Below are positions 18,270-43,896 of a stretch of 64,000 nt of DNA, piece by piece (the first letter of the stretch is position 1; each line of letters begins with the position of its first letter). The DNA is from an uncultured delta proteobacterium. Lineage in GTDB: Bacteria > Myxococcota > Myxococcia > Myxococcales > Anaeromyxobacteraceae. The position numbers and the translations under genes are program-made. The DNA is taken from positions 32,001 to 96,000 of the forward strand of contig CAWJSR010000055.1 in NCBI GenBank assembly GCA_963845515.1. Reading direction: 5' to 3'. The notes under the pieces are model-generated. The model was not told where the DNA came from. It made no database searches and was given only the letters and a program-made list of their open reading frames with translations.

Positions 18270-18307
18270 GGTCGGGAATTTACCATGACGCGCACCTCTC
18301 GACCGAC

Positions 18308-19144
18308 TCAGAACACGGGCGCGTCCGGCACCGTGAAGACGTGCATCGAGCCCTGCAGGACCGTCCCCACGCCGAAGTAGGCGATGACCACGAGCAGCAC
18401 CGCGAACATGGCGAACCAGGCGAAGCGCTGGTCGCGCCAGCCATAGGTGACGCGGAGGTGGATCAGGACGCCATACGCGAGCCACGCCAGGAGGTTCCAC
18501 GTCTCGAGGGGATCCCACGACCAGTACGCGCCCCACAGATCCTTCGCCCAGATCGCCCCCGAGGCGATCATGACCGCGCACGTGATGAACCCGAACACCA
18601 CGTACCGGTAGGCCACGCGGTCCAGCTCCTCGAGGGACGGCAGCCGCTCCGCTGCGGGCAGGCGGCCCGCCCTTCGCAGCAGGTAGGCCAGCGAGGCACC
18701 GCTCGCCACCGAGAAGGCGGCGTACGCGAGGAACGCGAAGAAGACGTGCACGTAGAGCCACACGCTCCGCAGCGACGGCGCCATCGGGCCACCGGCGGTG
18801 TTCTGCGTGACGCTCCACCCGAGGATCACGAGCGCGAGGGCGAGGGCACCGATCCCGACGGACCTGAACAGCTTCCAGGCCGCAGGCGCGGCGAAGGCGA
18901 ACACGACTATGGACCAGGCTCCAGTGGAGGCGTTCTCGTACGGCGTCGCGATTGGCGCGTGCCCGGTCTCGACCCAGCGCGCCAGCAAGGCCGCGGTGTG
19001 CGCCGCGAGCCCCGTGCCGGCCGCGATCCGCCCGAAGAGCGCCAGCCGGTCGCGCTGGAAGACGAGCGCCGCCAGCGGCAGGACGAGCCCCGCGGCGTAG
19101 GTGACGAAGACGATCGCCAGCAAGCTGGCTTCAAGGCGTGACAT
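18308..19144 (-). CDS. resC: Cytochrome c biogenesis system II heme lyase ResC/CcsA
   Basis: WWD domain GAIWAKDLWGAYWSWDPLETW, conserved His in WLYVHV and LIHLR, PYEN motif. Confidence 0.93.
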   Translation of the reverse strand: MSRLEASLLAIVFVTYAAGLVLPLAALVFQRDRLALFGRIAAGTGLAAHTAALLARWVETGHAPIATPYENASTGAWSIVVFAFAAPAAWKLFRSVGIGALALALVILGWSVTQNTAGGPMAPSLRSVWLYVHVFFAFLAYAAFSVASGASLAYLLRRAGRLPAAERLPSLEELDRVAYRYVVFGFITCAVMIASGAIWAKDLWGAYWSWDPLETWNLLAWLAYGVLIHLRVTYGWRDQRFAWFAMFAVLLVVIAYFGVGTVLQGSMHVFTVPDAPVF

Positions 19145-23343: not shown

Positions 23344-23380
23344 GGCCGGCCCCGATGCTCCGGGGCCGGCCCATGGAGCT

Positions 23381-26300: not shown

Positions 26301-29300
26301 TCGCCGTCGCCGCGTCCTTGCCGCCGTGGCACGCCGTGCACGCCAGCGCGGACTGCGCAGCCCACGTCGGCGCCGGCGTCTGGTACGCGATCGGCCGCGC
26401 GAGCGGCAGATCCACCGGATCCCCGTTCGAGTGGCAGTAGGTCGCGCACGTTCCAGTCGGTCGTCTTGTAGACGAGCCCGGTCGTCAGCGTGGTGTCGTT
26501 CTGGCCGTCGCCCGAGCGTGTACGGCGTCGCGCCGCTCGTCCAGTCGAAGCGCGACGTTCACCGCGAACGGGGTCGTCGCCGTCCCGCCCACGCTGTCGT
26601 TGTAGTGGTTCGCCGCCACCGTCGAGTGGCACTTCCCGCAGTTGTACCCGTACTGGGTCGTCGTCGAGGCCGGCGTGGTCGACGCCGTAAGCCGCCGCCG
26701 CCTCCGCTGCGCCCACGTGGAGTGCGTGCTCACCGCTCGTCGTGCGGGTTCACGTAGTGGCAGTCGTTGCACCCCGTCAGCTCCTTGAAGGCGGTGGTGG
26801 TGGTGGCCGCGTTGTGAGGGTGGCACTTCGTGCACTGCGCCCCCTGCATGTGCGTGCTGGTGGTGCCGGCCAGGTAGTACTTAATCTTCGCCGTGTCGGT
26901 GTGACACACCTGGCACACGCCGTTCAGCCCGTCCGTCGTGTTGTTGTCGACGTAGTCCGCGGGTCGAAGACGTCGTCCGCCAGGTTCAAGTTCGGAGTTG
27001 AACAGCACCACGTCTGGTCGTGAACTCGGTGGCGTCGGGGAGGCCCCACCCGTTCGCGTCGATGATGTCGTGGGAGCGTGATCGGCTGCTCGTGGATCAT
27101 GTACGCGAGCACCTGATGCTCGGAGTCGGTGTTGAAGTCGCCGTGCGGATCGTGGCAGTCCCAGCAGAACTCGCCGCCGGAGTGGTTCGCCCCGTGGTCG
27201 GCCGCGTAGTGCGTCGCGGTCACGCGCGCGGTGGTGCGTCGCCTTCTTCAGCAGGAGGGGACCCGTCGAGTCCGGGTCGAACCCGCTCGCCGGCGTCAGC
27301 CCCGGCACGCCGTCAGCCGCGTGGCAGACGAGGCAGTTACCGTTCTTCCCCCACGTGACGTCCACGCTGGTGTTGACGAGCCGGAACGGGTTGGTGGCGT
27401 CGGCGTGCGGCGCCTTCTGGCCGCCCGAGTACCGCGGCATCTTCGGCGTGTGGCAGTAGAAGCAGCCCTCGTTGGCCATCTGGCCGTCGTAAGTCATCCC
27501 CGGGACCCCGGTGTTGCCCGACATGCCGGTGGCCGTGAACCCGGTCGTCCGTCCGTGCCCGTAGGTGCTGTACTCCGTCGGCGTGATGACCGACTTCTGG
27601 CTGCCCGACGAGGAAGATGTAGTCGTCCGTCGTCGGCTGTGCGCGACGTGACAGTCGCGTGCAAGGCCCCTCGACGATGGTCCCACCCCAGGTCGACGGC
27701 GCCGCAGGCGGCGTGTGGCACGACACGTTGGTGCAGATCGGCGGCTGTGTCGCCCCGCTCCGCGGCATGTAGCTGATGCTCGACGTAGGTCGGGGAGAAG
27801 GCGATGTCCGCCACCTGGTTGAGGTGCTCCCGTTGTTCAGGATCGTGGTGCCGGTCGCGTCCACCGTGTCGTAGTGGCAGTCGACGCACGCCGCCTGGCT
27901 ACCCACGTGCGGGTTGTGGCTGTTCGCGGTGATCGAGGTCGAGCCACCGTTGACGTAGTTCGGTTCGCTCGCCTTCACAGTCCAGCCATAGCCGGTGTCG
28001 GCCGGCTGGTAGCTGCCGTGGCAGCTCGCACACCCGGTCAGCGGGGTCGTCCAGGGCTTCGGGAAGTACTTCGGCACCGTCGCCCCGACGTACTTCGAGC
28101 CCGCCGAGTGGCAGTAGGTCGTGCACCCGCCAGCCCCGCCCGAGACGTAGCTCAGCCCGGCGTCGACGTCCGCCGCCGCGTTCACGTGCTTGGCGATCGT
28201 CGTGATGGTCGGGGTCCCGTCCGTCGTCCCCGCGTGGCACGTCTGGCAGCCGAAGGTCGTCGCGTAGACCGACGCCTGGTTGGTGTGGGCGCCGTGCGCG
28301 TTGTTCACCATCGTCGTCGCGTAGCCGTGGCAGGACGCGCAGGTCGAGGTTCCGTTCCAGGCGGTGGACGGCCCGGACACATACCCGTCGGCGCCGTTCC
28401 GATCCGCGCCGTTCGAGTGGCAGTAGGTGTTGGAGCAGGTGTAGGCGACGCCGTTGTAGCCGCCGCCCGAGTTGTTGGGGCCGGTCGCGTCGAACCCGAC
28501 GTCGCGCGACCCGTCCACGTGCTGGCCGCCGCCGGCGACGATCGCGTTGCTGGCGCTCGTCACGGTGTTCACGTGGCAGCGGACGCAGGTGTAGGCGTAG
28601 GTCGAGACGTGCTTCTCGTGCTTGGCGGAGAGCCCCGTGCCGCTGAAGACGGCGGTCTCGTGGCAGCTCGTGCACGTCATGTTCGCGGCGGTCGCCCACG
28701 TGATCAGGTTCTTCGTCGCCAGCGTCCCGCCCAGCGGCTTCCCGTTCGAGTGGCAGTAGTTGCTGCTGCAGTTCGGGCTCGCCCACTGGGGAGCCACCAC
28801 CGGCGAGATCGCGCCCGTCCCCGTCGCCAGGTTGCTCCACCCCATCGCCACGCTGTTGTTCGCGTGCGCGCGGTCGTTCGCCACCGGCTTCGTGTGGCAG
28901 TTGTTGCAGTCGAGCGGCGCGACCATGTTCGTCGCCCCCTCGTCACGCACGTGCGCGTCGTGCGCACCCACCTGCACCACGGTGGCCGACGAGTTCCCCG
29001 CCGCGTCCACGCCCGTCCCGTTGTACCCGGGCGCCGCCGCGAAGTTCGTCGGACCCTGCGCCGTCCCAAGCGCCGCCAGCACGCCGTGGCATGCAGTGCA
29101 GCCGTTGTTCGGCTTGTCCGTGCCGCCGACGGTACCGCCGTTCACGTGGTAGGTCTTCGCCGTCCCGGACAGCCCACCCGTCGAGTATCCCGTCCCGTGG
29201 CAGTTCGCGCAGGCCGTGTTGGACGGGTGGACCACCGCTGGCGAGCCCGACGTCGCGGGAGAGGCCCCGTGGCACTGCGTGCAGGCAGCGGCCGCGTTGA

Positions 29301-32300
29301 AGTTCGTGATCCCCGTCGCGCTCCACTGCGCTACGACCGTCTCTCCGGCCAGCGTCGCGCCGTGACAGTAGTTGACGCACGTCGGCGTCCCTTCCCACGC
29401 CGTCGAGTAGGCGTTGGTCCCCGCGAGCGGCGTCGGCGTCACCCCACCCGTCGTGGCCAGCCCATTCCACGCTGCGTCACGCGTGCCGTTGTGCTGCACC
29501 GTCGAAGGGTGGCACTCCGCGCACGCCAGGCCGTTGGTCCGGTAGGTGTCGCTGTCCACGTGCTGTGAGGTGCGCTCCGACGCGCTGGCTGGTGCTCGAG
29601 TCCGGCGTCATCCACCGGCGGTGCGCCCTTGAGGTTCGCGTCCACGGTCCCCACGATCGACTTCACGCGGGTCGCAGAGCCGTGGCAGTCGCCGCAGGCG
29701 AGCGTCGCGCCCCACTGCGCGTTCTTGTTGCCGTGGCAGCTGATGGCGGAGCAGGTCTCACTCGCCTCGTCGTAGGTGAAGGTGATCCCAGGCCCCGCAG
29801 AGACGTCTCGCGTGTTGTCCAGGTGCTGCAGCCCGTCGGTGATCAGCGCCCCCGAGGTCTGGACAGTCGTCGCGTGGCAGTTCACGCACTCCGTCTTCGC
29901 CGTCGCCAGCACCGAGCTCAGGTGCTTGTCGTGGCTGTTCCGCGTCTTCACGTTCCCGGTGTTGTTCGCGTAGTTCGGCTCGCCGTACACCGCGTTGAAC
30001 GCCGACGGCGTATCCGACCCGTGGCACGCGAGGCAGTTGTCCGTGATCGCGCTGCCCCACGTGGCCGTCTTGTAGTCGGCGGCGACGAGCGGCGGCTCAG
30101 TCCCGTTCGAGTGGCAGTAGTTCGTCCCGCACGCGCCGCCGCTCCAGCTCGCCGCGTCCACGTCCTTCTGCCCGTCCACGTGGTTCGCGAAGCCGGTCGT
30201 CGCGTCGATCGCCCCGTCCGCGGCACCGATCGTCGCGTCGTGGCACGTCACGCACCCCAGGTTGGTGCCCAGGTAGGCCGCGGCGTTCACGTGACCCGTG
30301 TGCGAGCCCGTCGCCAGCTTGTACGTCGCCGACGAGTTGCCGCCGTGGCAGTTGTCGCAGTCCGCGTCCGTCGTCCCCGTGCTCCAGCTCATCGCCGTCG
30401 GGTTCGTCGTCGCCCCGAACGCCGGTCCCACCGTCGTCGTCCCGTTCGAGTGGCAGTACGTGGACGTGCACCCGTACCCCGGGGTCCCGGCGTAGACGCC
30501 GCCCTGCTGGTTCACCGTGTCCGCCGGGAACGCCACCGCCGAGAAGTCCACTTCCTTCGTCCGGTTGACGTGGTTCCCGACCGTCGCGATGCTGATCGAC
30601 GAGTCGTCCGTCATCGTCGGCGCGTGACACTCGTCGCACGTGTACGTGTAGCCCGTCAGGTGCTTCGAGTGCTTCGCCGACAGGTTCGTCCCGCCGAACG
30701 CAGACACCGCGTGGCAGCTCCCGCACGTCATGTCCGCCGCGCTCGTCCACGAGAAGGCAGGCGCCAGCAGCGTCCCTCCCAGCGGCGTCGCGTTCGAGTG
30801 GCAGTACACCGTGCTGCAGTTGGGCGACGCCTCGAACGCCGCCCCGAACGCCGCCGGGTTCGGCACCATCGTCGACCCGTTCGTCGCCAGCGCGCCCCAG
30901 CCGATCCCCACCGCCGCGTCGGCGTGCGTCGTGGTCCCGTCCGTCGGCTTCGTCCCGTGGCAGTTCGAGCAGTCCAGCGCCGCGACGCTGTTCTTGCTCC
31001 CAGCCGGCCGCACGTGCGCGTCGTGCGCACCCACGCTCGGAACCGAGACCAGGGCGGACCCGTTCGTGTCCACGCCGGTCCCGTTGTAGCCAGGCGCCGC
31101 CGTCATCGACGTGTTCGGCACCGCCGCAGCGGCCACCCCGGCCAGCACGCCGTGGCAAGCCGTGCACCCGTTGTTCGGCTTGTCCGTCCCGGCCACCGTG
31201 CTCTGGTTGACGTGCGTGTCCTTCGCTTCGACCGTGATCCCGCTCGTCACGTAGCCCGCGCCATGGCAGGCCACGCAGTTGGTGTTCTGCGGGTGGTCAC
31301 CAGCGCCAGCGTCCACCGCCGCAGGCACGCCGTGGCACGTGCCGCACGCCACCTCGCCCACTCCGGCCGTCCACGTCGGCGCCCGGTCGCTCCCGCCCAT
31401 CTCCGTCCCGCCAGGCGCGTGGCAGTACGTGTTCGAGCACGTCGCCCCGTCCCAGGTCGGCGTCTTCGTCCCGCCGTTCGTCGCGACGGTCCCCCACGCC
31501 ACCTGCTTCGTCCTGTTGTGCGTCCAGCCGTTGTGACACTCCGCGCACGCCAGCGCGTTCTGCCTCAGCCGGATCTGGTTCGCGTGCGCGATGTGCGCTC
31601 CCACCGCCCGCGTCGTCGTCAGCGTCTCGTTGCCGAGCCCTTCGGGCGGCGAAGCCTCCAGGTTCACGTCCGCGCCGGCCACCGGCGTGCGCGCCGCCCC
31701 GGTGTTGCCGTGGCACCCGTTGCAGGCGAGGGTCGCGCCCCACTGCGCGTTTCCGCCGCCGTGGCAGTTGATGCTGGTGCAGGTCTCGCTCGCCTCGTCG
31801 TAGGTGAAGGTGATCCCCGACCCCGCAGAGACGTTGCGGCCGTTCTTCAGGTGGTCCCCGCCGCCTGCGACCAGCGCGCCCGAGACCTGGACCGTCGTCG
31901 GATGGCAGCTCACGCAGTCCGCCGCCGCCGCCACGTGCTTATCGTGGCTGTTCCGCGTGTCGGGATCGCTCGTGTTGTTGGTGTACCAGGGGGCGCCGGC
32001 GATCCCGCCGGCCTCACGTCCGTGGCACTCCTTGCAGTTGTCGGTGCTGTCTGCCCCACCCCAGGTGACCGACACGTACCCCGGCGTCTCCGTCCCGTCC
32101 GAGTGGCAGTAGTTCGCCGCGCAGGAGTTCCCTGCGAACGTCGTGGTGCCCGTGTCGACCGCACCATCCACGTGCTTCGTCTTGTCTGTGATCACGCCGT
32201 TGGAGGCGTCGACGATCGCATGGCACGTCAGGCAGTTGTACGTGGTGTTCTTGTAGGCGGTCGCGTCGGCGACGTGCAGCGCGTGCGACCCGCTCGACAA

Positions 32301-34203
32301 GGTGGTGGCGTCGTCGTGGCAGCCCACGCAACCGAACGTGGCCACCGCAGAGAACGACGGCGCCGGCACGGTGCCCGGCGTCGCGGGGGTCGGGTTGTGG
32401 CAGTAGGTGCTGGTGCAGGTCGGGTAGCTCCAGGTCGGGGCGCGCGCGCCTCCGTCCGACGCGATCGTGCCGAACACGACCTGCGCCTCCTCGGTGCCGG
32501 CGGTCGCAGCGTGCGCGTTCGGGATGGGGTGGCACTCCGCGCAGCCCATGGGCGAGGCGACGGTGGTCGCGTCGTTCACGTGGGTCTGGTGGACGCCCAC
32601 GCCGCGGACGGAGACGGCGTCGGAGGTCGTGCCGCCGTAGGACTTGGGCGGGGCCAGCTTCGCGTCGGCGCTGGCGCCGGTGACGAGCACCCGCGAGACG
32701 TTGCCGTGACAGTCGGTGCAGGCCGTCCCCTGGGAGATCCCGTCGATGTGCGTGATCTTCGCCGACGCGGAGAGGGGGACGGTGTAGCCGGGGTGGCAGA
32801 GCACGCAGCCGGTCGGCGTGGAGAGCGGGTGCGCGGCGCCGGAGTGGAGGAGCGTCGGCGGGCTGCCGTGGCAGCTGCCGCAGGTGAGCGTCGCGGGGGT
32901 GTTCCACTTGACGGTGAGCTTGGTGGCGGGCGAGCCGTCGGCCATCGTCGCGCCGTGGCAGTAGTTGGTGCAGGTCGGGTTGCTCACCCAGCCCGCGGTC
33001 GTGACGCCGGCCGCGGGCGAGACCGTCGCACCGTCGGCCCTGGTGATCGTCCCCCAGTTCAGGTCGATGTCGTTGTCCCCGTGGCCGTAGTTCAGGTGGC
33101 ACTCGGCGCAGGTCAGCGCGTCCCGCCGGTAGGTGTCCGCGTTGACGTGATCGAGGTGGACACCGCCGTTCAGGACCTTGGGGGCGGTCGTCGTCGGCGC
33201 GGTGGGAGGCGAGTAGGTCAGGTATGCGTCCGTCGCCCCGGAGATGGCGGAGGCGCGGCCGCCCGCGGCACCGTGGCAACCGGCGCAGTCGACGTTGAAG
33301 CCCTTCTTGTGCGAGTGGCAGGCGGCGCAGTTCTTCGAGCTCGTTCCCGCTGTGGGAGGTGAGCGTGCCGTTGCTGCGGAAGACTGCGGTCCGCGTGTGG
33401 CAAACCTGGCACGGGCCGCTGCCGTCACCGTTTGCGAAGGAGGCCGCGGAAGGGTACCCGACGCCGCCGTTGGAGACGTATCCACGGCGGGTGGAGAAGC
33501 GGACCTGGGCCGGCGGGAGTGCCTGGTACACGTTCGGCGGGTCGATCTGGGTCGCGATGAGGGAGGCGTTGGTGGTGTCGTGGGGCTGGTGGCAGGTGCG
33601 GCAGCCGGCGTACCAGGAGCCGTACTTCTCGGGACCCGTCGCTTCCGAGGAGTGGGACTGGTGGGCGTGGCAGTCGCTGCAGAGCTGGCCGCCGTTGTCA
33701 CGGACCAGCAGCTTGCCGTCGCCCCGCTTCTGGTTGCCCCCAATCCCCGCGTAGTTCGTCGTTACCGCGACCGGCCCCGACCAGACCACGTCGAGCGCCG
33801 TGCCGTTCGTCCCCGACGCCTGGAGCGTGTAACTCTGGCCGGAGGTGAGCTGACTCGTCGTCAGCCTTCCTTCCCAGATCCCCGAGTCGGTCGCCGTACC
33901 GTACTTGAGGTTCTGAGTCAGTGGGATCGAGCCGGTGCCCGCCCCCTGCCACTCGAGCGTCACCGCGCCGATGGCCTGCGTCGCCCCGCCGGCCGTCTTC
34001 GGGCTGAAGACGCGCACTTGCACGCGCAGGGGTAGCGTGATCGCCCCGGGGCCCGGGTTCACGATCCCGATGACCACCTTCCGGTTGTTCGCGGTCGGGT
34101 CGCCCTCCGGGTGAACCGCGGCGGCAGCGATCCCCGCGGCCAATGCCATGATCCCCAGGGCGGCGAAGCGCGCGAAGATGCGAACGTTCTTGCGGGAGCT
34201 CAT
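23381..34203 (-). CDS. Giant secreted multiheme c-type cytochrome (about 3600 aa, about 80 heme motifs, Geobacter-type CxxxxCH...CxxCH repeats); at least a dozen apparent frameshifts
   Basis: Start MSSRKNVRIF.. with signal peptide. Continuous heme-motif repeats run through ORF fragments 32014..34236, 29439..33743, 27337..29559, 26730..27686, 26924..27223, 26485..26835, 25636..26415, 24783..26003, 24196..25410 and 23313..24359, ending ..SRPLNY-TAG at 23381. Hand count about 62 CxxCH + about 19 CX3-4CH. Confidence 0.82.
29070..31830 (-). repeat. About 2.05-kb internal super-repeat of the giant cytochrome (offsets 2028-2067 bp)
   Basis: ITFTYDEASETC at about 31790 and 29763. GTDKPNNGCTACHGVLA..AAPGYNGTGVD..VGAHDAHVR at about 31141 and 29074. 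Similarity is visible at the DNA level. Confidence 0.75.
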
Positions 34204-34245: not shown

Positions 34246-35406
34246 CTACCGCGCGTCCCTGCTGAGGGAGTTCGAATCGGCGTTGTGGACGCGATGGCAT
34301 GTCGTGCACCGCACGAGCCCGCCATCCAGGACGAGATCGTTGGTGGCGTTCCGCTGCCCGTCTTCGGCGTCGCTCGCAGAGGTCCCCAGCTTACCCTCGA
34401 GGTCGGTGGTCGCCGTCCCATCCGCGTCGAGCACCGTCCCACGGTCGGAGTTCAACCCGTTCGCGTTCAGCCCGACGTTGACGGGGTGGCTGAACTTCCG
34501 GACCCCGTTCGGTCGGTAGTAGCGATCGTCGCCTCGCGCGCGGACATGGTTCATCACGCGCTCCTTGTGGCAACTGAAGCAGATGTCGTCGTTGACGTTC
34601 GTGACCCTGAGGAACGGATAGCCGACGTAGAAGTCCCAGAGGTCGCCGACCGCGGCTCCAGCCGTCCACTTCACCTTGATCCCTGCGATGTCCAGGTCGA
34701 CGTCAGTGTTGTTGACGTACTTCTTCCCTTGGCCTCCTGACGTACCGGGAATCCAGGCGGTGCCGTTCCAGTTGAGCCAGCTCTCCGCGTTCCAGCCGTA
34801 GTCGTGGGACAGGATGAAATACCCCTCCCCCCTTGCCACGTCGACACTCTGGATCTGCAGCCGGAAGCCCTCGGCGTTCGATCCGGGAGCTGCCGTCAGC
34901 GTCAACGTTGCGCTGCCGGAGCCGGACGTCGCGGCCTGGCCAACGCCAACCGGAATCGAGGTATGCATTGACCCGGGCTTGAGTCCAGCCGGCGCATCGT
35001 GCGCGTTGTGACAGACCACGCACTGGAGGTTGCCGGCGCTCCATACATAGTCGTCGGCGAATCCTCCGACGATCTGCGCGCCGTGCGCCGGGCTGGCCCC
35101 CGGCTTGCTCCAGCTGTGGCTGGTGCCGGTCGTCCCCGGAACCGCCTCGTCCGTGGCCGGGACCCACGGCGCGCCGAAAGCCTGCCCGGACTGGTTGTGG
35201 CAGTCGAGGCAGGCAGTGCTGAGGGTGTACGTGGTCTCCGTGCGTACCGCGAGGCTATGGCAGAAGTAGCACGCCTGCTCGCCATTCGCGGTCTTGTCGT
35301 GGGGAGGGAAGAGCCGCTCCGGAGTCACCAGTGAGTGAGCCACCGCCGGCGCAAGGAGAGCGACCAGCACCGCGCCTATCGCCGTGCCTACCAGGAAGCT
35401 GCGCAT
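34246..35406 (-). CDS. Pentaheme c-type cytochrome with inserted beta-rich domain (paralog of 61049..62143)
   Basis: Signal peptide. CYFCH, CLDCH, CVVCH, CFSCH, CTTCH. FSHPVN. C-terminal HNADSNSL. Confidence 0.9.
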   Translation of the reverse strand: MRSFLVGTAIGAVLVALLAPAVAHSLVTPERLFPPHDKTANGEQACYFCHSLAVRTETTYTLSTACLDCHNQSGQAFGAPWVPATDEAVPGTTGTSHSWSKPGASPAHGAQIVGGFADDYVWSAGNLQCVVCHNAHDAPAGLKPGSMHTSIPVGVGQAATSGSGSATLTLTAAPGSNAEGFRLQIQSVDVARGEGYFILSHDYGWNAESWLNWNGTAWIPGTSGGQGKKYVNNTDVDLDIAGIKVKWTAGAAVGDLWDFYVGYPFLRVTNVNDDICFSCHKERVMNHVRARGDDRYYRPNGVRKFSHPVNVGLNANGLNSDRGTVLDADGTATTDLEGKLGTSASDAEDGQRNATNDLVLDGGLVRCTTCHRVHNADSNSLSRDAR

Positions 35407-35408
35407 CC

Positions 35409-37895
35409 CTATTCCTCCGCCTCGTCGCCCACCACGGCGACGCTCACCCGGGCCGGTGCGCTCCGCACCAGACCGTCATCCACCTCGAGCTCGAACTCGT
35501 ACGTCCCCGCCGACTTCGGTCTGAAGGTCGCCACCGACGTCCCCTCGATTACCGTCCACGGCCCACCCACCTGCGCCCACCGGTACCCCTTCGCTCCGGT
35601 CGACCCCCGCGCGTCCAGGGAGACCCGCGCCCCCGTCACCACCGTTGCGGGCCCGCTCACCTTCGCGAACGGGATCGGCTTCCCGTCCTTCCTCGCCTCC
35701 ACTCGGACCCGCATCGGCGCACCCACCCCAGCACCGTCCTTCACCGTCAGCTCGAACTCGTACGACCCAGGCTCGAACAGGTACGCCGTCGCCATCGCGC
35801 GATCCGCCGACCCGACCCCGGTCGCCGGCCCCGACACCTGCCGCCACGCGTACTCCGCGCTCCCGCTAGACGACGTGCTACCCGCGCCGTCCAGCGTCGC
35901 CTCCGTCCCCACCGCAGCCACGGCAGGGGCCTTCGCCACCGCCACCGGCAGCGCGCCGTCAGCCGCCGCCACGTAGACCTCCACTCGACCGGGCGGCGAC
36001 TGGATCCCGGCCTTGGTGACGGTGACCTCGAAGGTGTAGCGACCGGCCTCGCTCGCCTCGAAGCTGGCGGCGGCGAGTCCGTCGCCAACGACTGGAACCT
36101 GGGGACCGGCCACCTGGCGCCAGGAGTAACCCGCGGCGCCGGCGACGATGCTAGCCGTCGCGTCGAGCGCTATCCGCCCTCCTACCTTCCCGACCACCGG
36201 CGTCGCGACCACCGCGACCGGCACCTTCTGCTTCCCCACCACCACGACGCTCGACTCAACCGCGTCGCCGAGCTTCGACGGGTCCGTGACCGTTGCCCTG
36301 AAGTCGTGGGTCCCTGGAGCCGAGAACGTCGCCGTCAGCGCGCTCGTGGTCTCCCCGCCCGTCACGACAGGGCCGGTGAGCTGCTCCCAAGCGTGCGCCA
36401 GCGGGTCGCCGTTGGCGTCATCGGACCGCCCCGCATCGAGCGTGACCGCCGCGCCGCCCTCGACCACCTGCACCCTCGTCGCGACCGCCATGGGCGAGAC
36501 GTTGACGACGTTCGCCGTGACCTCGATGGGATCCGACTTCACCCCGCCGCACGTCGCCACGACGGTGAAGTGGTACGCACCCTTGCGCGCCGGGAAGGTC
36601 GGCGCGAACCCCTCCGCCTTCCTCAACGCGACCGTCCTCTCGTCCTCCGGCGCCTGGGTCCACTGAGCAGTGCACTTCGACGGGTCGGGGATCTCCGTCA
36701 CCGTCGCCGACAGCCTCACCAGGCCGGGTACGAACTCCGTCGCCCCGCTCGCCACCAGGACCGGCCTGACGTTCGGCGGACGCAACGGATCCGTTCCGTT
36801 CGCCACCTCCACCGCGTCCGACTCGCCGTCCCCGTCCGTGTCGACGTTCCCTGGTGCGGTCCCGAGCGCGTACTCCTCCAGGTTCACCAGCCCGTCCCCG
36901 TCCAGATCCTTCAGCGCGTCCTGCGCGCTCGTCGAGTCGAGCCCCACCTGACCCTCCCAGGCGTCGTTCATCCCATCGCAGTCGCCGTCCCCAACGCACT
37001 CCGGCAGCGGCCTCCCGTCCCCGAAACGATCGATCCGACTCGCGAGGAGGTTCGCGACCAGCAGGTCGCCGTTCTCCATGACCGCCATCCCCGCAGGCTG
37101 CTCCAGCGTCCCGACGCCCGTCTGGGAGAGGCCGATCGTCTGCACTCGCGTGTCATCCGGGGCCACGACCTCGACCTTGTTGAGATTGAGATCCGCGACG
37201 AAGAGCTGACCGCCCGAGCCGACCAGCAGCGCCCCCGTCAGCTTCGCCGGGCCGACTCCGCTCGCGCCGATCACCTTCACGCGAGCTCCGCTCACCGGAT
37301 CCAGCCCGAAGATCATCCCCCCCGGGCTCTCGTGATCCTGAGCCACCCAGATGACTCCCGACGAGGCGTCCACCGCCACGTCCACCAGCCTGAACAACCC
37401 GCCCGTCCCCGATGGCCTGAACTCCGACACCAGCGAACCATCCACCGCGCGCGACTGGACCACCCCGGAGCTGAAGACGGACCAGACAACGCCTCGCGCT
37501 GCGTCCCAGGACATCCCCGTAGGACTGACGCCCAGCCCCAGATGCACCTTCCCCCCGAGCACCTTCCCGTTCCGTTCGTCCAGCACGACGAATTCAACGC
37601 GGTCGTTCACCGCGTAGATCTTCCCGCCCCCGGCCGTCACCGCCCTCACGCCGTTCAGGAGCGTCGCGACGAAGTCACCCCGCTTCGTCAGCAGGTTCAG
37701 CTGCCCCTTCGCGTCGATCACCACGAACTGCCCGCTGGAGGTAGCCGCCATGCGCCGAGGCCCGAAGATCTGCGCGCCGACGCTCCCCTGCAGAGTCGGG
37801 ACACCGACGGCACCGTCCGAAGCAGTGGCCTGGCCACACGTGAGGAGAACACACACCGGCAGCAGGATCGCGCGTCCGAGCGTTCCGGAGGTCAT
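35409..37895 (-). CDS. Secreted NHL-propeller + TSP3-like Ca-binding + PKD/K319L-type Ig-repeat protein
   Basis: Signal peptide, NHL repeats, DGDGLVNLEEYALGT..DTDGDG repeats, repeated VTLDA..S...Y.W.QV.GP...G.Y.FEL.V.D modules. Confidence 0.88.
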   Translation of the reverse strand: MTSGTLGRAILLPVCVLLTCGQATASDGAVGVPTLQGSVGAQIFGPRRMAATSSGQFVVIDAKGQLNLLTKRGDFVATLLNGVRAVTAGGGKIYAVNDRVEFVVLDERNGKVLGGKVHLGLGVSPTGMSWDAARGVVWSVFSSGVVQSRAVDGSLVSEFRPSGTGGLFRLVDVAVDASSGVIWVAQDHESPGGMIFGLDPVSGARVKVIGASGVGPAKLTGALLVGSGGQLFVADLNLNKVEVVAPDDTRVQTIGLSQTGVGTLEQPAGMAVMENGDLLVANLLASRIDRFGDGRPLPECVGDGDCDGMNDAWEGQVGLDSTSAQDALKDLDGDGLVNLEEYALGTAPGNVDTDGDGESDAVEVANGTDPLRPPNVRPVLVASGATEFVPGLVRLSATVTEIPDPSKCTAQWTQAPEDERTVALRKAEGFAPTFPARKGAYHFTVVATCGGVKSDPIEVTANVVNVSPMAVATRVQVVEGGAAVTLDAGRSDDANGDPLAHAWEQLTGPVVTGGETTSALTATFSAPGTHDFRATVTDPSKLGDAVESSVVVVGKQKVPVAVVATPVVGKVGGRIALDATASIVAGAAGYSWRQVAGPQVPVVGDGLAAASFEASEAGRYTFEVTVTKAGIQSPPGRVEVYVAAADGALPVAVAKAPAVAAVGTEATLDGAGSTSSSGSAEYAWRQVSGPATGVGSADRAMATAYLFEPGSYEFELTVKDGAGVGAPMRVRVEARKDGKPIPFAKVSGPATVVTGARVSLDARGSTGAKGYRWAQVGGPWTVIEGTSVATFRPKSAGTYEFELEVDDGLVRSAPARVSVAVVGDEAEE

Positions 37896-37909
37896 GGGGA
37901 GGCGCAGGA

Positions 37910-38065: not shown

Positions 38066-38194
38066 CCCAACGCGTCAGCGTGCTCCGTCAGGGTTATCCT
38101 TCAGGCGCCGCCGTAGGCCCTGCACCCACCGCTGCGCCAACCCCCGGCCCCCTCTGCCCGCTTCTTCTCGCGCAGCGCCGGAGCGCCATCCCTC

Positions 38195-39709
38195 TCACTT
38201 CGGGGATCCGACCTCTGCGAGCATCCTGCGGACCGACTCGGGCAGCTGGCCTCCGCCGGCCCCGTGCTGCATCTTCGGCATCCTGGTGCCGAGGTGGCCA
38301 AAGTACTTACCGTAGGACTTCATCATCTCTTCGAAGGCGCTCAGCATGTAGCGCCGCTTGAAGCCCTCGGGGAGCGCCAGGACCTCCGGGAGCTTCTTCG
38401 CGTAGAAGGTCATGTAGCAGCGCCCAAGCGCGACCGAGACGTCCTCCAGGCTCATCGCGTAGGGCTCGATGATCGGCGTCGCGAGGTTGTACCTGGAGTA
38501 GTCGTGGACGCGCACCCGATCCTTCAGCTGCTCGTAGATCGGCGTGAACGGCATCGGCGTCAGCACCGGGAAGACGGCGACGTCAGGGTTCAGCCGGATC
38601 GCCACCTCGATGGTCCTGTCGATCGACTCCTGGGTCTCCGTCGGGTGACCGATCATGAAGGACGCCTCGGTGATGAGGTCGTTCTCCCGGGCGAGCTGGA
38701 GCGCCTTCGCGTTGGTGCTGACGCTGGTCCCCTTGTTGAGGCTCACCAGCAGCTCGTCGGTGCTCCCCTCCGCCCCGAGGTAGAGGTGGACGATCCCCGC
38801 CTCCCGGTACTTGTGGAGGATGTCGGCGTCCCGGACGATGTCCTCGACCCGCGTCTCCATGAGCAGCATGACGCCCAGCTTCGTCTCGATCAGCAGATCG
38901 AGCAGCCGCTCCCAGCGCGCCCGGTCGCTCGTCGGATACGGGTCGATCATCGTGATCGCCTCGACGCCGTACTTCTCCACGAGCAACCGCATCTCGGCGA
39001 CCGAGTCCTCCGGGCTCCGCGCGCGCCAGTCGCCGCGCCAGAAGGCCCGGTGGCTGCAGAAGGAGCAGCCCATCATGCAGCCGCGCGACGTGAGGACCGA
39101 GGCCATCCGGCCATAGGGCGCGATGTGGTACCGGTAGAGGCTCCAGTCGAGCAGGTGCCAGGCCGGCTTCAGCGCGTCGAGGTCGGCGAGGTGCTGGCGC
39201 AGCTCGGTGGCCACCACGTCGCCGCCGCGCCGGAACGCGAGCCCCTTCACGCCCTCGAACCGTTCCCCCGGCAGGGCGTCCAGGAGCTCGGCGAGGGTCT
39301 CCTCCGCCTCGCCACGGAGGACGAAGTCCACGCGCTGGTCCCGATCCCGGAGCAGTTCCTCGTGCCTGAAGGTCGGGAACGGCCCGCCCATGATCGTCCG
39401 GATGGCGGGGTCCACGTCCTTCGCTATCCCCAGGGCCCGCAGCGCGTTGGGGACGATGGCCGTGCTGATGGCGCCGGTCACCGGGAGGTAGTCCCAGGCG
39501 ACCACCACGTCCGGCCTGACCCGCTCGACCTCGGCCCGGATCGACTCGAAGGTCCCGCCCTCCATGTTCATCGCGTCGAAGATCCGGGCCTCGTGGCCCG
39601 CCGCCTCCGCCGCCCCGGCGAGATAGGCGATCTGGAGTGGCGGCCAGCTGCCGATCGCTTCCACGCCCCAGTAGTTGTAAGGCGGGACGACGAACAGGAT
39701 CTTGCTCAC
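38195..39709 (-). CDS. Cobalamin-dependent radical SAM enzyme, BchE-like
   Basis: GTG start (SKILFVVPPY). B12-binding domain (WPPLQIAYLAGA, MGGPFPTF, RGEAE). RGCMMGCSFC. ETRVEDIVRDADIL..YREAG, TPMPFTP, DYSRYNLATPI, GFKRRYML. Confidence 0.9.
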   Translation of the reverse strand: MSKILFVVPPYNYWGVEAIGSWPPLQIAYLAGAAEAAGHEARIFDAMNMEGGTFESIRAEVERVRPDVVVAWDYLPVTGAISTAIVPNALRALGIAKDVDPAIRTIMGGPFPTFRHEELLRDRDQRVDFVLRGEAEETLAELLDALPGERFEGVKGLAFRRGGDVVATELRQHLADLDALKPAWHLLDWSLYRYHIAPYGRMASVLTSRGCMMGCSFCSHRAFWRGDWRARSPEDSVAEMRLLVEKYGVEAITMIDPYPTSDRARWERLLDLLIETKLGVMLLMETRVEDIVRDADILHKYREAGIVHLYLGAEGSTDELLVSLNKGTSVSTNAKALQLARENDLITEASFMIGHPTETQESIDRTIEVAIRLNPDVAVFPVLTPMPFTPIYEQLKDRVRVHDYSRYNLATPIIEPYAMSLEDVSVALGRCYMTFYAKKLPEVLALPEGFKRRYMLSAFEEMMKSYGKYFGHLGTRMPKMQHGAGGGQLPESVRRMLAEVGSPK

Positions 39710-39895: not shown

Positions 39896-41305
39896 TCACG
39901 CGGCGCCTTCGCTCCGCTCGTACGCCCCACGTGCCACCACGTCCCCCGGGTAGGCGACGTAGAGCGGCCCCCAGGACGGGTTCCTGTCGTGCATGGTCTT
40001 GAGCCCCGCCAGCATCCGCTGCATGAGCCGTCCGACGTCCGCCTCCGCCTGGAGGGCCTCGGTCACGGCTGCCGCGACGACGTGGGCGGCGTAGATCCCC
40101 GGCCCGTACCTCGCCGGGAGAGGCTTCGCCGACCGGAGGGGCTCCCGCAGCGCCATGACGATCTCCTCGTCCCCGTCGCGCCAGTCCTGGATCTCGCCGA
40201 GCGCGTGGTGCTCCAGCGCGGCCAGCTTCTCCCCGACGATGGTCTTCGCCACGACGGCTGCCGACCGCTTCGCCACCGTGACCGTCACGGGCGTGCTGCC
40301 GAGCCTCACCTGGCCGAGATCGCGGTCGGTCTCGTGCTCGAGGAGCGCTGCCCACCTCGCGGCCCCGTCGAAGGAGAGCAGTCGAACCGTCTCCGCACCG
40401 AGCCAGCCGCGGAGGATGTCCGCGGGGTGCGGGTCGTCCTTGGAGCCCACGTTCCTGAGCTGTGCCCTCCCCCGGTGCGCGCCGTTCAGCGCCCTGAAGT
40501 AGCCGATCAACCCGACCGCCGCGGCCGGCCCCATGTTCAGGATCCCCAGGACGTCCGACGCCGACTCGTCCAGCCGGGCCGCCCAGTAGTCCGCGATGAC
40601 CACCCCTAGCTTCGCGGCCGTGAGCCTCTCGCGGACCGCGCGCACCAGCTCGTCGTGGAGGCCGTCGTCGGCTGCGAGGATGTCGTGGCCGGCCGTCTCG
40701 TGCGCGAGCGCCGACCAGGCGAGCAGCCCTTCGCGCGCGTTGGCCGTTGGGAGGCTGACGATCGGCGCCTTCACCTCGAAGGAGGCGGTCGCGGTGACCG
40801 GCCAGGTGTACGGCCCCGCGTCGGCGTCGCCCCAGCGGACGAGCGGCGGGAGGACGCCGCGGTCGGGCGCCTTCACGCCGCGTCGATCCTCTGCGGAGAG
40901 GAAGCCGTCGTAGAGGTCGCTCACGACCTCCTGGAAGCCGTCGGTCGCGAGCTCACGGTAGCCCTCCCCGTTCTGCAGGATGCACTGCGCGATGTCGAAC
41001 ATGAGCCGCGCCGTCCCCTCGCGATCCGGATCCTCGCCGAGCACCTGCTCGAAGCCGCTGACGCCGAGGCCGTCGAGCGTCCGGACGAAGGGCTCGTGCA
41101 CCGACTTCAGGTAGAGCGGCGGCACCTTCCTGCGGGCCGCGTCGAGGCGCGCGCGGAGCGTCACGAAGTCCGAGGGGTCGGGGGGACCGTTCTCACGCGA
41201 GAGCGCTGCGGAGCGGGCGTCCTCGATGCATGCGGGGAGGTTGTCGAGCGCCGGCTGGACGACAGGCCGCGGCTGCTTCGTTCGAGCTGCTGGCTTCGAT
41301 GGCAT
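39896..41305 (-). CDS. Hypothetical protein with HExxGH metallopeptidase-like motif
   Basis: ALAHETAGHDIL followed by DESASDVLG and DPHP..LR. No signal peptide. Confidence 0.6.
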   Translation of the reverse strand: MPSKPAARTKQPRPVVQPALDNLPACIEDARSAALSRENGPPDPSDFVTLRARLDAARRKVPPLYLKSVHEPFVRTLDGLGVSGFEQVLGEDPDREGTARLMFDIAQCILQNGEGYRELATDGFQEVVSDLYDGFLSAEDRRGVKAPDRGVLPPLVRWGDADAGPYTWPVTATASFEVKAPIVSLPTANAREGLLAWSALAHETAGHDILAADDGLHDELVRAVRERLTAAKLGVVIADYWAARLDESASDVLGILNMGPAAAVGLIGYFRALNGAHRGRAQLRNVGSKDDPHPADILRGWLGAETVRLLSFDGAARWAALLEHETDRDLGQVRLGSTPVTVTVAKRSAAVVAKTIVGEKLAALEHHALGEIQDWRDGDEEIVMALREPLRSAKPLPARYGPGIYAAHVVAAAVTEALQAEADVGRLMQRMLAGLKTMHDRNPSWGPLYVAYPGDVVARGAYERSEGAA

Positions 41306-41415: not shown

Positions 41416-41769
41416 ATGAAGGAGAAGCTCACCATCCTCAACGCCTTCGTCCACGACGTGGCGACCGGGACGTGGATCGGGACGCTGGTGCTCCTGACGA
41501 TCCTCCATCAGGAGACCCGGAAGCCGGCCTGGTTCCTCGCCGGCCCGCTGGTCCCCGGGCTCGAACGGAAGTTCCTCGTCCTCACCTGGGTGAGCCTCGG
41601 CCTCATCGTGGCGACGGGCGTCGTCAGGATGGTGACGTGGAAGGTCTTCGGCTGGACCGGCGACATGGAGCGCGACCGGATCCAGCTCCTGAAGATCAAG
41701 CACGCGCTGCTGGGGATCGTCTTCGCAGCGGGGACCGTCTGGCAGGTCCTGCTGGTCTACGGCTCATAG
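41416..41769 (+). CDS. Small 3-TM membrane protein (CopD/DUF4149-like)
   Basis: HDVATGTWIG, ATGVVR and LKIKH motifs with three hydrophobic helices. Confidence 0.65.
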   Translation: MKEKLTILNAFVHDVATGTWIGTLVLLTILHQETRKPAWFLAGPLVPGLERKFLVLTWVSLGLIVATGVVRMVTWKVFGWTGDMERDRIQLLKIKHALLGIVFAAGTVWQVLLVYGS

Positions 41770-41927: not shown

Positions 41928-43421
41928 ATGACGACGCCCTCACCCGCTGACGCCCTCGCAGTCGCGGAGCGCAGGCAGCTCACCGAGGAGATCCTCGGCT
42001 TCATCGAGGCGGGCGTCGACGTCGAGCGTGCCCGACTTCAACGCGCTACGCGCTCCGCCTGTTCGCGCTGCAGTACGGGACCAACGCGATCTTCCGCGAG
42101 TTCTGCGACGCGAAGAAGGTGCGGCCGTGGCGGACGTCGACGCGCTGGCAGGACGTCCCGATGGTCTACAACGACGTCTTCAAGACCCACCTCGTCGCCT
42201 CCTTCCCGCTCGAGCAGTCGGTGATGGGCTGCCTCACCGGCGGCACGACCAGCCTCACGCAGCGCGGGCGGATCTTCCGCGACGAGGACGGCAAGCGGCT
42301 CGTCTTCGCGGCCAACCGGATGATGACCGGCTCCTACCTGTTCCCGGACTTCGAGGAGGGGAGGCGCTGCCGGATCCTGATCCTCGCGCCCGAGCCCCGA
42401 GCTGGCGCCGTCGATGGGGATGGCCATCGGGATGGACCAGACGCGGCGGGCCTTCGGGACGCCGGACAGCCAGTTCCTGCTCGGGAAGTCCGGCATCGAC
42501 GTCGACGGCGCTGCTCAAGGCGCTGCGCGAGTCCGAGGCGAGCGGCGTCCCGGTCGCGCTCATCGGCGCGACCGTCGGCGTACGTCTACTTCTTCCAGGC
42601 CTGCCGCCGGAAGAAGATGGCGTTCCAGCTGCCGCCCGGCAGCCGCATCTGCGACGGCGGCGGCTACCGCGGCCGCTTCGGCGTGGTGACCCGCGACGAC
42701 TACTACGCCATGGTCGAGGAGATCCTCGGCATCCCGGAGACCCACTGCGTCAACGTGCTCGGCGAGGCGGAGACGGCGACCAACCTCTTCGACGACTCGC
42801 TGCGCCGCCACGTGAAGGGGCTGCCGCCGCGCAAGCGGACCCGGCCCGGTGCCGCCCTGGTCGCGCGTGCTCGCGATGAGCATCGACACGCTGAAGCCGC
42901 TCCCCGACGGCGAGGTCGGGCTGCTCGCGCACTGGGACCTGGCGAACGTCCCGACGGTGCTGGCCGTCATCACCGACAACCTCGGCTACACCACCGACGG
43001 CGGACGCGGCTGCGAGATGGTGGGGCGCGCCAAGCTCGAGAACGGCAAGGTCTCGCCGCTCCCCGACGAGAAGCCCATCGGCGCGATGGGCGACTCGGCG
43101 ATCTTCCGGATGCTCGAGACCTACGTGAACTTCTCGATCGACCTGAAGATGCGGATCGGCGAAGGACCCGAAGGTCGGCGCCGAGCATCCGCGAGGAGAT
43201 CGAGGCGCGCCCGGGCTCGCGTCGCCTCCTGCCCGCAGGTGGTGGACGAGATCCTGGTCTCGCAGGCCGACGAGGAGGCCGCGAGGCTGCGCGACGCGTC
43301 GCTCGAGGCCTTCAAGGACCAGACCGACCGGCCGCTGGAGTGGTTCAGGGCGCAGGCGGAGAAGCAGGCGCTGACGGACCATCCGGCGGGCCTGCAGTCG
43401 GAGAAGGCGGTCGAGGAGTGA
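41928..43421 (+). CDS. LuxE-like acyl-protein synthetase / adenylate-forming ligase (several frameshifts)
   Basis: RBS AAGGAG. Motifs across frames: ALRLFALQY..N..FREFC, WQDVPMV..DVFK, TGGTT, LPPGSRICDGGGYRGR, NVLGEAE, PPWSRV, GLLAHWDLANV..VLAVITDNLG, GRA. Confidence 0.75.
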
Positions 43422-43464
43422 CGGGCCGGTCGGCCTCACGCGCTCTCCTGCTCCCGCTCCACCC

Positions 43465-43896
43465 TCACCCGACCAGCGGATTGCGCCAGCGGAGACCGGG
43501 GAAGCGCGCGAAGTCGGCGTCGTTCGAGTGGACCTCGCACTGGTGCTCGATCGCGAGGGCCGCGAGGTGAGCGTCCGTCGTGAGGTTCCCCGCCACGCCC
43601 ACGTCCCTGAGCAGACGACCTAGCACCTCCAGGTGCCGGGCTCCCGGATCCAGCGCCTCCACGTTCGCCCGGTCGAACCATGACTGGACGTGCGCCACGG
43701 CCCGCGCGGGCGCGAGGGGTGTCGAGAGGACCGCCGGGTGGGTCATGAGCCGGATGAAGCCGCAGGTCACCGCCCATGGCAGGCCTACGCCCTCCGAGCC
43801 GCTGAGCAGCCCCTCCCACCAGCGCCGCGCGGCGTCGTGATCGCGCGCGTCCCGGTTGTAGGCATAGACGAGCAGGTTGACGTCGGGGACGATCAC
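43465..43896 (-). CDS. vapC: PIN-domain toxin (VapC family)
   Basis: IVPDVNLLVYA, TDAHLAALAIEH, SNDADFARFPGLRWRNPL. Confidence 0.92.
   Translation of the reverse strand: MIVPDVNLLVYAYNRDARDHDAARRWWEGLLSGSEGVGLPWAVTCGFIRLMTHPAVLSTPLAPARAVAHVQSWFDRANVEALDPGARHLEVLGRLLRDVGVAGNLTTDAHLAALAIEHQCEVHSNDADFARFPGLRWRNPLVG

Follow-up and report, generated by a model that had tools for sequence, protein, structure and literature searches.

A BchE-related radical SAM enzyme encoded with cytochrome c maturation genes: a possible accessory to multihaem cytochrome assembly

What does an enzyme that resembles BchE, the anaerobic Mg-protoporphyrin monomethyl ester cyclase, do among genes for multihaem cytochromes? 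The question is raised by a stretch of 64,000 nucleotides, hereafter the window, from an uncultured member of the Anaeromyxobacteraceae (contig CAWJSR010000055.1 of assembly GCA_963845515.1, positions 32,001 to 96,000), in which a gene for a BchE-like radical S-adenosylmethionine (SAM) enzyme lies near a series of cytochrome c genes. A preliminary description of the locus had proposed that the enzyme modifies haem or haem c and so tunes the redox potential or the stability of the cytochromes. The placement of the enzyme's family, the integrity of its domains and the conservation of its gene neighbourhood are established below. The gene is probably tied functionally to the maturation or function of multihaem cytochromes, and to this extent a haem-related role is supported by gene context; haem as the substrate, modification of haem c and tuning of redox potential or stability found no support.

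The gene occupies positions 38195..39709 of the minus strand, within an open frame of 38195-39808. It starts with GTG at 39709 (VSKILFVVPPY, compared with MSKVLFVVPPY at the start of homologues), with GAGG 8 nt 5' of this codon, and its product has 504 amino acids (aa). Pfam recognizes a B12-binding domain (PF02310, residues 20-143, E 3.4e-18) and a Radical_SAM domain (PF04055, residues 206-368, E 2.6e-21). The CX3CX2C cluster motif, CMMGCSFC at residues 211-218 (C211, C215 and C218), is invariant in 11 of 11 aligned sequences. The AlphaFold2 model, built from a 59-sequence alignment, has a predicted local distance difference test (pLDDT) score of 91.2 and a predicted template modelling (pTM) score of 0.90. 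A Foldseek comparison with the PDB returned the class B radical SAM enzymes AprD4, TsrM, CysS, MgmA, TokK and OxsB with a probability of 1.00, template modelling scores normalized to the query of 0.62-0.69 and 14-22% identity. The best match is AprD4, annotated as a diol dehydratase; among the 46 rows shown there is no BchE structure, only generic class B radical SAM folds. By its domains, motif and modelled fold the protein is a class B, that is, cobalamin-dependent, radical SAM enzyme, with the use of cobalamin predicted. The protein, with its cluster and B12 motifs intact, looks more like a catalyst than a mere carrier of haem. A contig from a public sequencing run is identical to the window across 38473-39092, inside the gene. 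No sigma-70-like promoter and no intrinsic terminator were found in 37700-42200, which says little at 70% G+C.

The relationship to BchE is close in architecture and distant in sequence score. The NCBIfam model of BchE, TIGR02026, matches residues 3-476 of the protein with positions 1-470 of its 497 at 371.1 bits (E 9.4e-111). The runner-up is ApyD with 132.5 bits, and lower scores were obtained for HpnR (128), a C-methyltransferase of peptides made by the ribosome and modified after translation (RiPPs; 95.4), a lipid-ladder family (93.5) and an MCR glutamine methylase (92.5). The curated whole-protein cut-off of TIGR02026 is 481.35 bits, above the score of the 504-aa protein, and other members of the family (P0010, P0112 and P0104) score 365-403 bits. 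The preliminary description had read a B12 radical SAM protein with BchE motifs along its length, and all six motifs are indeed present in the translation: GVEAIGSWPPLQIAYLAGA, CSFCSHRAFWR, TRVEDIVRDADILHKYREAGIVHLYLGAE, TPMPFTP, DYSRYNLATPIIEPYAM and GFKRRYML. The same six align in two proteins above the BchE cut-off, P0135 (761 bits) and P0137 (770 bits). As judged from this alignment, they are common to a wider BchE-like superclade and not specific to BchE. Neither Pfam nor NCBIfam holds a curated model specific for the family of the window gene, and one source names many of the homologues automatically 'anaerobic magnesium-protoporphyrin IX monomethyl ester cyclase'.

The phylogeny that had been suggested as a check places the gene inside the BchE-like superclade and not with other B12 methylases. 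In a maximum likelihood tree of 48 rows (quick IQ-TREE search, midpoint root), in which true BchE is represented by two rows only, the window gene and 12 orthologues form an own-family clade of 13 rows with a Shimodaira-Hasegawa-like approximate likelihood ratio test (SH-aLRT) support of 100. This family is sister to a second uncharacterized clade of 11 rows (joint 24 rows, SH-aLRT 98), and the two together are sister to the branch that contains true BchE (32 rows, SH-aLRT 99). P0135 and P0137 make up a separate clade (SH-aLRT 100) on a branch different from that of the window gene. In this tree the own family and its sister clade are thus monophyletic apart from BchE and from other B12 radical SAM enzymes.

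The genome, of which 4.74 Mb in 58 contigs (88.46% complete, window included) could be searched, gave no match to Photo_RC or BchH; the best scores for BchL and BchM were 230.7 and 54.7 bits, against cut-offs of 345.15 and 158.9. The reported lack of photosynthesis genes near the locus was therefore borne out, as none exceeded its cut-off in the window or in the rest of this genome, and a full photosynthesis gene set was not found there. Because its score is below the curated cut-off, its clade is separate and a photosynthesis gene set was not found in the genome, the window gene is placed by sequence as a BchE-related paralogue of a distinct subfamily, not as BchE itself.

The surroundings of the gene were compared in three sets of 80 loci. 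The own-family set consists of the best 80 of 345 stretches with a relative (one genome per species), at 56-74% identity; the sister-clade loci were fetched independently with an alignment of sister-clade representatives; and a third BchE-like clade (1.17 Mb) served as a control. The open reading frames (ORFs) neighbouring the gene in the 80 own-family loci and the window were first grouped by all-against-all BLAST, ignoring one large component of high-G+C antisense ORFs, and the neighbours within 8 kb of the radical SAM gene were then counted with custom hidden Markov models (HMMs) built from the own-family clusters. The commonest neighbours are CcsA (Cytochrom_C_asm), ResB, a cytochrome of about 880 aa with 11-13 CxxCH motifs, a LuxE-family enzyme, and two proteins without a family: c13, which is small and lipoprotein-like, and c59, a membrane protein of about 115 aa. 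Among the own-family loci CcsA was found in 30, ResB in 28, a cytochrome with four or more CxxCH motifs in 31, an MHC882-type cytochrome in 21, LuxE in 10 and c59 in 15; 40 of the 80 have at least one of CcsA, ResB and cytochrome. The corresponding counts in the sister clade are 49, 33, 31, 25, 26 and 32, with 55 loci having any of the three. All six counts are 0 of 80 in the control clade, which has its place in the tree beside true BchE and is made up of sequences from cyanobacteria, Chlorobiaceae, Flavobacteriia, Planctomycetota, Chloroflexota and methanogens. As many contigs are short, the neighbour counts are lower bounds.

The association is strongest in the Acidobacteriota, where CcsA, ResB and c13 lie beside the radical SAM gene in all 10 loci, and in 9 of these a 13-haem cytochrome is found upstream, giving the order cytochrome-ResB-c13-CcsA-radical SAM, as in locus L065 of Geothrix fermentans DSM 14018. 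CcsA is present in 17 of 45 loci of Actinomycetota, 3 of 5 of Betaproteobacteria, none of 8 of Gammaproteobacteria and none of 11 of Myxococcota. It is co-oriented with the radical SAM gene and typically ends within tens of bases of it, about 36 nt before it in the BLAST clustering (median -36 nt). The same partners recur in at least six phyla and in the two sister clades, in conserved order and at near-zero intergenic distance. Of the 8 gammaproteobacterial loci of the family, 5 have LuxE and 5 have NnrU; L075, L080, L081, L082 and one further locus have the arrangement c59-LuxE-radical SAM-NnrU with no CcsA nearby. In one locus of a metagenome-assembled genome (MAG) of the Coriobacteriia, L043, a single CcsA gene lies between two copies of the family, one of which has a very long branch (3.94) in the tree.

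The LuxE-like partner is in several cases part of the same polypeptide. Thermincola ferriacetica and T. potens encode single proteins of 975-1005 aa (P0126 and P0275) with B12-binding, Radical_SAM and LuxE domains, and three more fused ORFs were found in L089 (1004 aa), L092 (1057 aa) and L093 (966 aa). Linkage or fusion to LuxE is more frequent in the sister clade (26/80) than in the own family (10/80). The sister-clade representative P0124 is fused instead to a Polyketide_cyc2/SRPBCC domain. The LuxE-like proteins are a tight orthologous family that scores 750-850 bits with the custom HMM from Actinomycetota to Geobacter. They match PF04443 and reach 71.8 bits with the NCBIfam model of the long-chain-fatty-acid--protein ligase LuxE, the cut-off of which is 550. 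Five genomes without LuxE at the radical SAM locus were searched for a distant copy: two encode one, which adjoins c59, c13 and CcsA in one genome and a 4-haem ORF in the other, and none was found at E 1e-10 in the remaining two Geothrix and one Anaeromyxobacteraceae genome. A complex prediction for the radical SAM protein and the LuxE-like neighbour of Motiliproteus (L075), run without controls, gave a score of 0.00 and counts neither way.

The other partners are less well defined. The alignment of c59 has the invariant residues N..F.HD, TG..R and KH. Of 23 members, 12 match CopD in Pfam (weakly, best E 8.9e-5), 5 match DUF4149 and 2 cytochrome b561, and the Atlas gives a CopD match of 0.78, so that its description as a CopD-like membrane protein is a lead only. 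An NCBIfam scan gave no specific family for ResB, c13 or c59, and the module CcsA scored 154.5 bits against an equivalog cut-off of 187.6. The neighbouring 13-haem cytochrome family had no match by sequence in the PDB. In an alignment of 17 client-type cytochromes only canonical CxxCH motifs were seen, with no evident conserved extra target site. A non-canonical haem-binding motif in the clients, considered as the reason for a dedicated CcsA, was dropped, as the alignment has none.

The family is conserved and patchily distributed. A word-indexed protein search listed 120 best homologues with 65-95% identity, and those named among the matches listed belong to Geothrix, Holophagaceae, Anaeromyxobacteraceae, Coriobacteriia and other Actinomycetota. 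By the titles of the records, the 80 own-family loci comprise 10 of Acidobacteriota, 11 of Myxococcota, 45 of Actinomycetota or so labelled, 5 of Betaproteobacteria, 8 of Gammaproteobacteria and one without a label. By its RpoB the organism of the window is a relative of Anaeromyxobacter, the protein being 88% identical to that of an Anaeromyxobacteraceae genome, compared with 69% for Geotalea and about 52-61% for Geothrix. In the window's order, an orthologue with 67% identity or more is present in 3 of 60 other genomes, and a relative of 40-44% in 4. High conservation together with sporadic occurrence gives the window gene the look of an accessory function that can be transferred. Among the carriers that the records name are Geothrix fermentans DSM 14018, several other Geothrix strains, Thermincola potens JR, Geomonas limicola, Geotalea sp. 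SG265 and Dechloromonas sp. ARDL1; the named carriers of relatives of the window gene are non-phototrophs. The sister clade is found in Thermincola and other Bacillota, in Geobacter, Geobacteraceae and Desulfuromonadales, in Nitrospirota, in Ignavibacteria and Bacteroidota, and in gammaproteobacterial MAGs. It is 39-47% identical to the window gene and forms a distinct clade without the B12-domain insert of the window protein; both occur in non-phototrophic anaerobes rich in multihaem cytochromes. In loci L018, L020, L053 and L029 the G+C content of the radical SAM gene is 4-9 points under that of most neighbours (0.70 against 0.74-0.77 in L018), which fits either a strong amino-acid constraint or recent transfer.

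The window holds all the parts of this module, CcsA/ResB, multihaem cytochromes, the LuxE-like enzyme and c59, but spread out. On the plus strand, divergent from the radical SAM gene, c59 (41416..41769; custom HMM 179 bits) begins 1.7 kb and the LuxE/PaaK-type acyl-adenylate-forming enzyme (about 42044..43570; custom HMM 564 bits, located by tblastn with the LuxE-like proteins of L075 and L068) 2.3 kb upstream. Downstream, the cytochromes begin at 2.8 kb, all on the minus strand. They have 5 CxxCH motifs (34246..35406, by motif count and Pfam), 24 CxxCH and 9 Cx3-4CH (29439..33743; Cytochrome_C7 8.2e-42, GSu_C4xC__C2xCH 5.7e-23), 11 and 5 (27337..29607) and 7 and 3 (24783..26201), the last two as stop-to-stop frames, and 3 CxxCH (23313..24359, by motif count). 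Together these five ORFs (23313-35475) contain 50 CxxCH and 17 Cx3-4CH motifs. The gene had been described as lying immediately upstream of, and co-oriented with, a cassette of roughly 80 haems. The co-orientation holds; the immediacy is only approximate, as a gene for a PKD/NHL/TSP3-repeat protein (35409..37895, minus strand; Pfam K319L-like_PKD 1e-35, PKD_4 and NHL) intervenes. The haem number is matched by 78 CxxCH motifs in six ORFs, of which only 50 lie downstream; the other 28 belong to a protein encoded upstream at 53176-60936, and further cytochrome ORFs of the window stand outside this count. That upstream protein (2586 aa, minus strand) also has 5 Cx3-4CH motifs, and its N-terminal half is haem-free and repetitive, with two near-identical repeats of about 230 residues.

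Beyond the five cytochromes, two membrane proteins are encoded on the minus strand before ResB. One of the proteins in this interval, of 608 aa (20561-22387, minus strand), has many predicted membrane helices and, at its C-terminus, a methyltransferase domain like that of spermidine synthase (Pfam E 6.8e-5); a similar small methyltransferase occurs near the radical SAM gene of locus L071. The ResB (CcsB)-like System II protein (19131..20650, minus strand, start approximate) was located by tblastn with ResB of L023 at 19743-20573, and the custom HMM matches it with 55 bits over positions 21-469 of 503. It is followed on the same strand by the CcsA (ResC)-like synthase subunit (18308..19366; Cytochrom_C_asm 1.9e-37, custom HMM 261.7 bits). 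Next comes a small lipoprotein-like cytochrome (about 17835..18300, minus strand), in the translation of which four CxxCH motifs (CQRCH, CHECH, CHTCH and CLECH) and a signal end GGCGG were read. Upstream of the radical SAM gene and co-oriented with it is an ORF of 469 aa (39896..41305, minus strand), which has a third-position G+C content of 0.93 and no Pfam family and is not part of the conserved module. The Atlas gave only 'hypothetical protein' clusters and weak peptidase leads for it, and it has no cluster-mate among the ORFs of the other 80 loci.

A second family copy lies about 60 kb further on the same contig, at 131063-132691 of the contig (locus L252); it is frame-broken and 71% identical over its C-terminal half. 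It heads a second cassette (117073-132691, all minus strand) in which the radical SAM copy is followed by ORFs with 25, 8 and 5 haem motifs, CcsA and ResB. In a FastTree phylogeny of 87 CcsA sequences both cassette CcsAs fall within a large clade of radical-SAM-associated CcsAs, and a separate clade holds three further CcsAs of this genome (support 98; a weak result, as the branches are long). The genome has 52 ORFs with at least four CxxCH motifs, 507 motifs in total. It also encodes HemN (543.8 bits, above the cut-off) beside ferrochelatase; HemJ was not found in this 88.46% complete genome. With a standard HemN and ferrochelatase present, haem b can be made in the ordinary way without the window enzyme. 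The window gene was also considered as the coproporphyrinogen oxidase of the genome, a candidate dropped because of this HemN.

These data can be combined in a tentative proposal, in which the window enzyme is possibly an accessory part of a mobile, multi-phylum module that makes particular multihaem cytochromes c, and would act on a side chain of haem or of a late tetrapyrrole. The module would consist of a dedicated System II synthase (ResB/CcsA), cytochromes of 10-15 haems, often a LuxE-type enzyme that adenylates carboxylates and often a small CopD-like membrane protein. In the cytoplasm, radical chemistry of the BchE type would remove a hydrogen from the ring-adjacent position of a propionate or other side chain. 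The LuxE-like enzyme, where present, would previously activate the carboxylate, in analogy to the methyl ester in the substrate of BchE, and the CcsBA belonging to the module would carry the product out and join it to the client cytochromes. Four facts underlie the side-chain assignment: the intact enzyme, its kinship with BchE, the adjacency to CcsA/ResB and the pairing or fusion with LuxE; the substrate, the chemistry and the order of the steps are deduced from them. It is more doubtful that the family and its sister clade make a new modified haem, with a propionate oxidized, desaturated or cyclized after activation by LuxE, which the dedicated CcsBA attaches to the 10-15-haem cytochromes of metal-respiring bacteria in at least six phyla.

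Several observations weigh against this proposal. Half of the own-family loci (40/80) have no cytochrome-related neighbour within 8 kb, among them 9 of 11 of Myxococcota, 23 of 45 of Actinomycetota and 7 of 8 of Gammaproteobacteria. The own-family counts arise partly by construction, since own-family loci supplied the HMMs; the loci share ancestry and are not phylogenetically independent; and the control clade is unmatched for taxon, its members being mostly cytochrome-poor. In the window the arrangement is looser than in typical loci, with ResB and CcsA not adjacent but 17.5-19.9 kb downstream on the same strand, and the reading frame of the LuxE-like enzyme is broken. LuxE is not an obligatory partner, as the two Geothrix genomes and the Anaeromyxobacteraceae genome without it indicate. 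BchE is only 36% identical to the window protein (38% over matched stretches), and the clades between them are uncharacterized. The fold search cannot discriminate substrates; the enzymes that it matched act on different ones. A lipid-like carboxylic acid would suit the LuxE and SRPBCC partners no less than haem, and LuxE-family enzymes are known for fatty acids. To our knowledge, the published structures of multihaem cytochromes report no modified haem c.

A substrate other than a tetrapyrrole is the first alternative to be weighed. The enzyme and its LuxE-like partner could act on a hydrophobic carboxylic acid (a fatty acid, a membrane lipid or an intermediate of a quinone pathway) that is needed for electron transfer, and their genes could be co-located with those of the cytochromes through joint use. 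This would suit the match of the partner to the LuxE family (PF04443, with an NCBIfam LuxE score far under the cut-off), the fusion of the relative P0124 to an SRPBCC domain, which is of a lipid-binding type, and the gammaproteobacterial c59-LuxE-radical SAM-NnrU loci with CcsA in none of 8; literature abstracts also report many class B radical SAM enzymes that modify lipids. It is nevertheless unlikely in view of the tight, often overlapping adjacency to CcsA across phyla, the whole-length match to BchE (371 bits, compared with 128 to HpnR and 93.5 to the lipid-ladder family), and the Geothrix operon cytochrome-ResB-CcsA-radical SAM, which is without LuxE. Alternatively, the target of methylation or cross-linking could be a protein, either the unfolded apocytochrome before Sec export or a maturation component. 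Class B includes modifiers of proteins and peptides, MgmA is among the structural neighbours, and a specific cytochrome family, MHC882-like, accompanies the gene in 21 own-family and 25 sister-clade loci, of 80 each. The matches to the families concerned (ApyD, RiPP C-methyltransferase and MCR glutamine methylase) are, however, far weaker than that to BchE, neither a small precursor peptide nor a RiPP recognition element came to light, the 17 aligned cytochromes have no obvious conserved target site and the LuxE partner would be left unexplained, which makes such a role quite unlikely.

The remaining explanations concern the link itself and the ordinary supply of haem. If the gene merely rode in mobile islands rich in cytochrome genes, its patchy distribution in the window's order (3 and 4 of 60 genomes), its G+C content below the locus average in L018, L020, L053 and L029 and the unrelated neighbours in half of the own-family loci (PBP1, FemAB-like, NlpC/P60 and EamA) would be accounted for. 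The absence of a functional link is very unlikely given the same partners in at least six phyla and two sister clades, the conserved order, the near-zero spacing, the gene fusion and the control clade with 0 of 80. A housekeeping role in anaerobic haem b supply, either replacing an oxygen-dependent step or delivering haem to CcsBA in the manner of HemW, has in its favour that the anaerobic synthesis of haem involves radical SAM enzymes acting on tetrapyrrole propionates (PMC10114771), that the gene adjoins a haem exporter/synthase, and that HemJ was not found. It is highly improbable, because bona fide HemN and ferrochelatase are present, the gene was not found in most of the relatives searched (60 genomes of the window's order), and the intact cluster and B12 motifs suggest catalysis over mere carriage. 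That the window gene is true BchE, as its best family match and the automatic name of its homologues would have it, is almost certainly wrong: it scores 371 against 481 bits, lies outside the BchE clade, occurs with neither Photo_RC nor BchH and with only sub-threshold BchL and BchM in its genome, and has non-phototrophic carriers.

Some further features of the window touch the module or its surroundings. The reading frame of the LuxE-like gene has a break near 42840 and probably a second near 43158, tblastn giving two pieces in frames 2 and 3. Logan contigs of four public runs, compared over 38195-53400, have one base fewer at 43158 and 49907 (four of four) and at 45068 and 45182 (three of four), among other places; the contigs that cover these places diverge from the window by several percent and may come from relatives. 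Some frameshifts of the window may thus be assembly errors and not pseudogenes. Two B12-binding radical SAM genes of a different family, alike each other, lie at 44183-45700 and 49843-51276 (minus strand). They do not match the window gene at E 1e-2, and each is readable only across two or three frames. The gene at 49843-51276 follows a frame-broken ResB and CcsA (51156-53282) downstream of the 28-haem protein, so that the order over 49843-60936 is cytochrome-ResB-CcsA-B12 radical SAM, the radical SAM member here being of another family. At about 1911-4061 on the plus strand an 11-CxxCH cytochrome outside the count of 78 matches the MHC882 HMM with 222 bits and is 25% identical to the cytochrome beside the radical SAM gene of Dechloromonas; a smaller cytochrome, also outside the count, is encoded at 5168-6004 (plus strand), and NHL-repeat-like proteins at 1651-2310 and 4105-5256 flank the two. 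Two small overlapping ORFs of 143 and about 114 aa (43465-44237, minus strand) resemble a PIN-domain toxin and a ribbon-helix-helix antitoxin when their sequences are read; the 114-aa ORF has no Pfam match.

Multihaem cytochromes drive extracellular electron transfer, metal cycling and bioelectrochemical systems, and cytochrome c biogenesis by Systems I-III is generally described as the attachment of unmodified haem b. In the open-access literature searched (PMC and bioRxiv), no BchE-like or B12 radical SAM enzyme was linked with CcsA/ResB, LuxE or multihaem cytochromes. Among BchE-like cobalamin radical SAM enzymes the family of the window gene would be a functional subfamily of a new kind, and the automatic BchE-type annotation of its homologues is corrected. 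If a conserved radical SAM and adenylating pair does work on a dedicated haem attachment system, this would point to a missing maturation step or a new haem derivative, or to an accessory molecule for electron transfer of a kind so far unknown. A new modified haem, if real, would be a new tetrapyrrole cofactor and would open a new branch of cytochrome c biogenesis. If the named carriers are cultured isolates, as the titles of their records imply, the idea is directly testable.

Among known systems, the dedicated System II cytochrome c synthase paralogues NrfI and CcsA1 of Wolinella, which serve special haem sites, resemble the module in that an extra CcsA/ResB pair is encoded together with a client cytochrome; here the clients show canonical CxxCH motifs only. 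We know of no radical SAM or adenylating enzyme in dedicated System II systems of this kind. AprD4, TsrM, CysS, MgmA, TokK and OxsB have the same overall fold as the window protein, and their substrates include an aminoglycoside, tryptophan, a carbapenam and a protein glutamine. HemN/CgdH, AhbD and NirJ may share with it a radical attack at a tetrapyrrole propionate under anoxia (PMC10114771). They have no B12 domain and belong to another radical SAM class, and HemN (1olt) is a distant fold match, at rank 43. The nearest relative of known function is BchE, which, as described in PMC13598231, attacks the C13 propionate methyl ester of a metalloporphyrin and in vitro oxidizes C13(1) by six electrons and then closes the ring. 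The window protein and BchE have in common an N-terminal B12-binding domain, a CX3CX2C radical SAM core, a similar C-terminal region, a full-length match and the motifs WPP..YLAGA, CSFCS...FWR, TRV.DI.RD...YR.AG, TP.PF, DYS.YN..TPI and FKRRY. They differ by the 36% identity to P0135 and P0137 (38% over matched stretches), by the 8-residue insert YLPVTGAI in the B12 domain of the window protein, and by their gene neighbours, which are bch genes in the case of BchE and cytochrome c maturation genes in that of the window gene.

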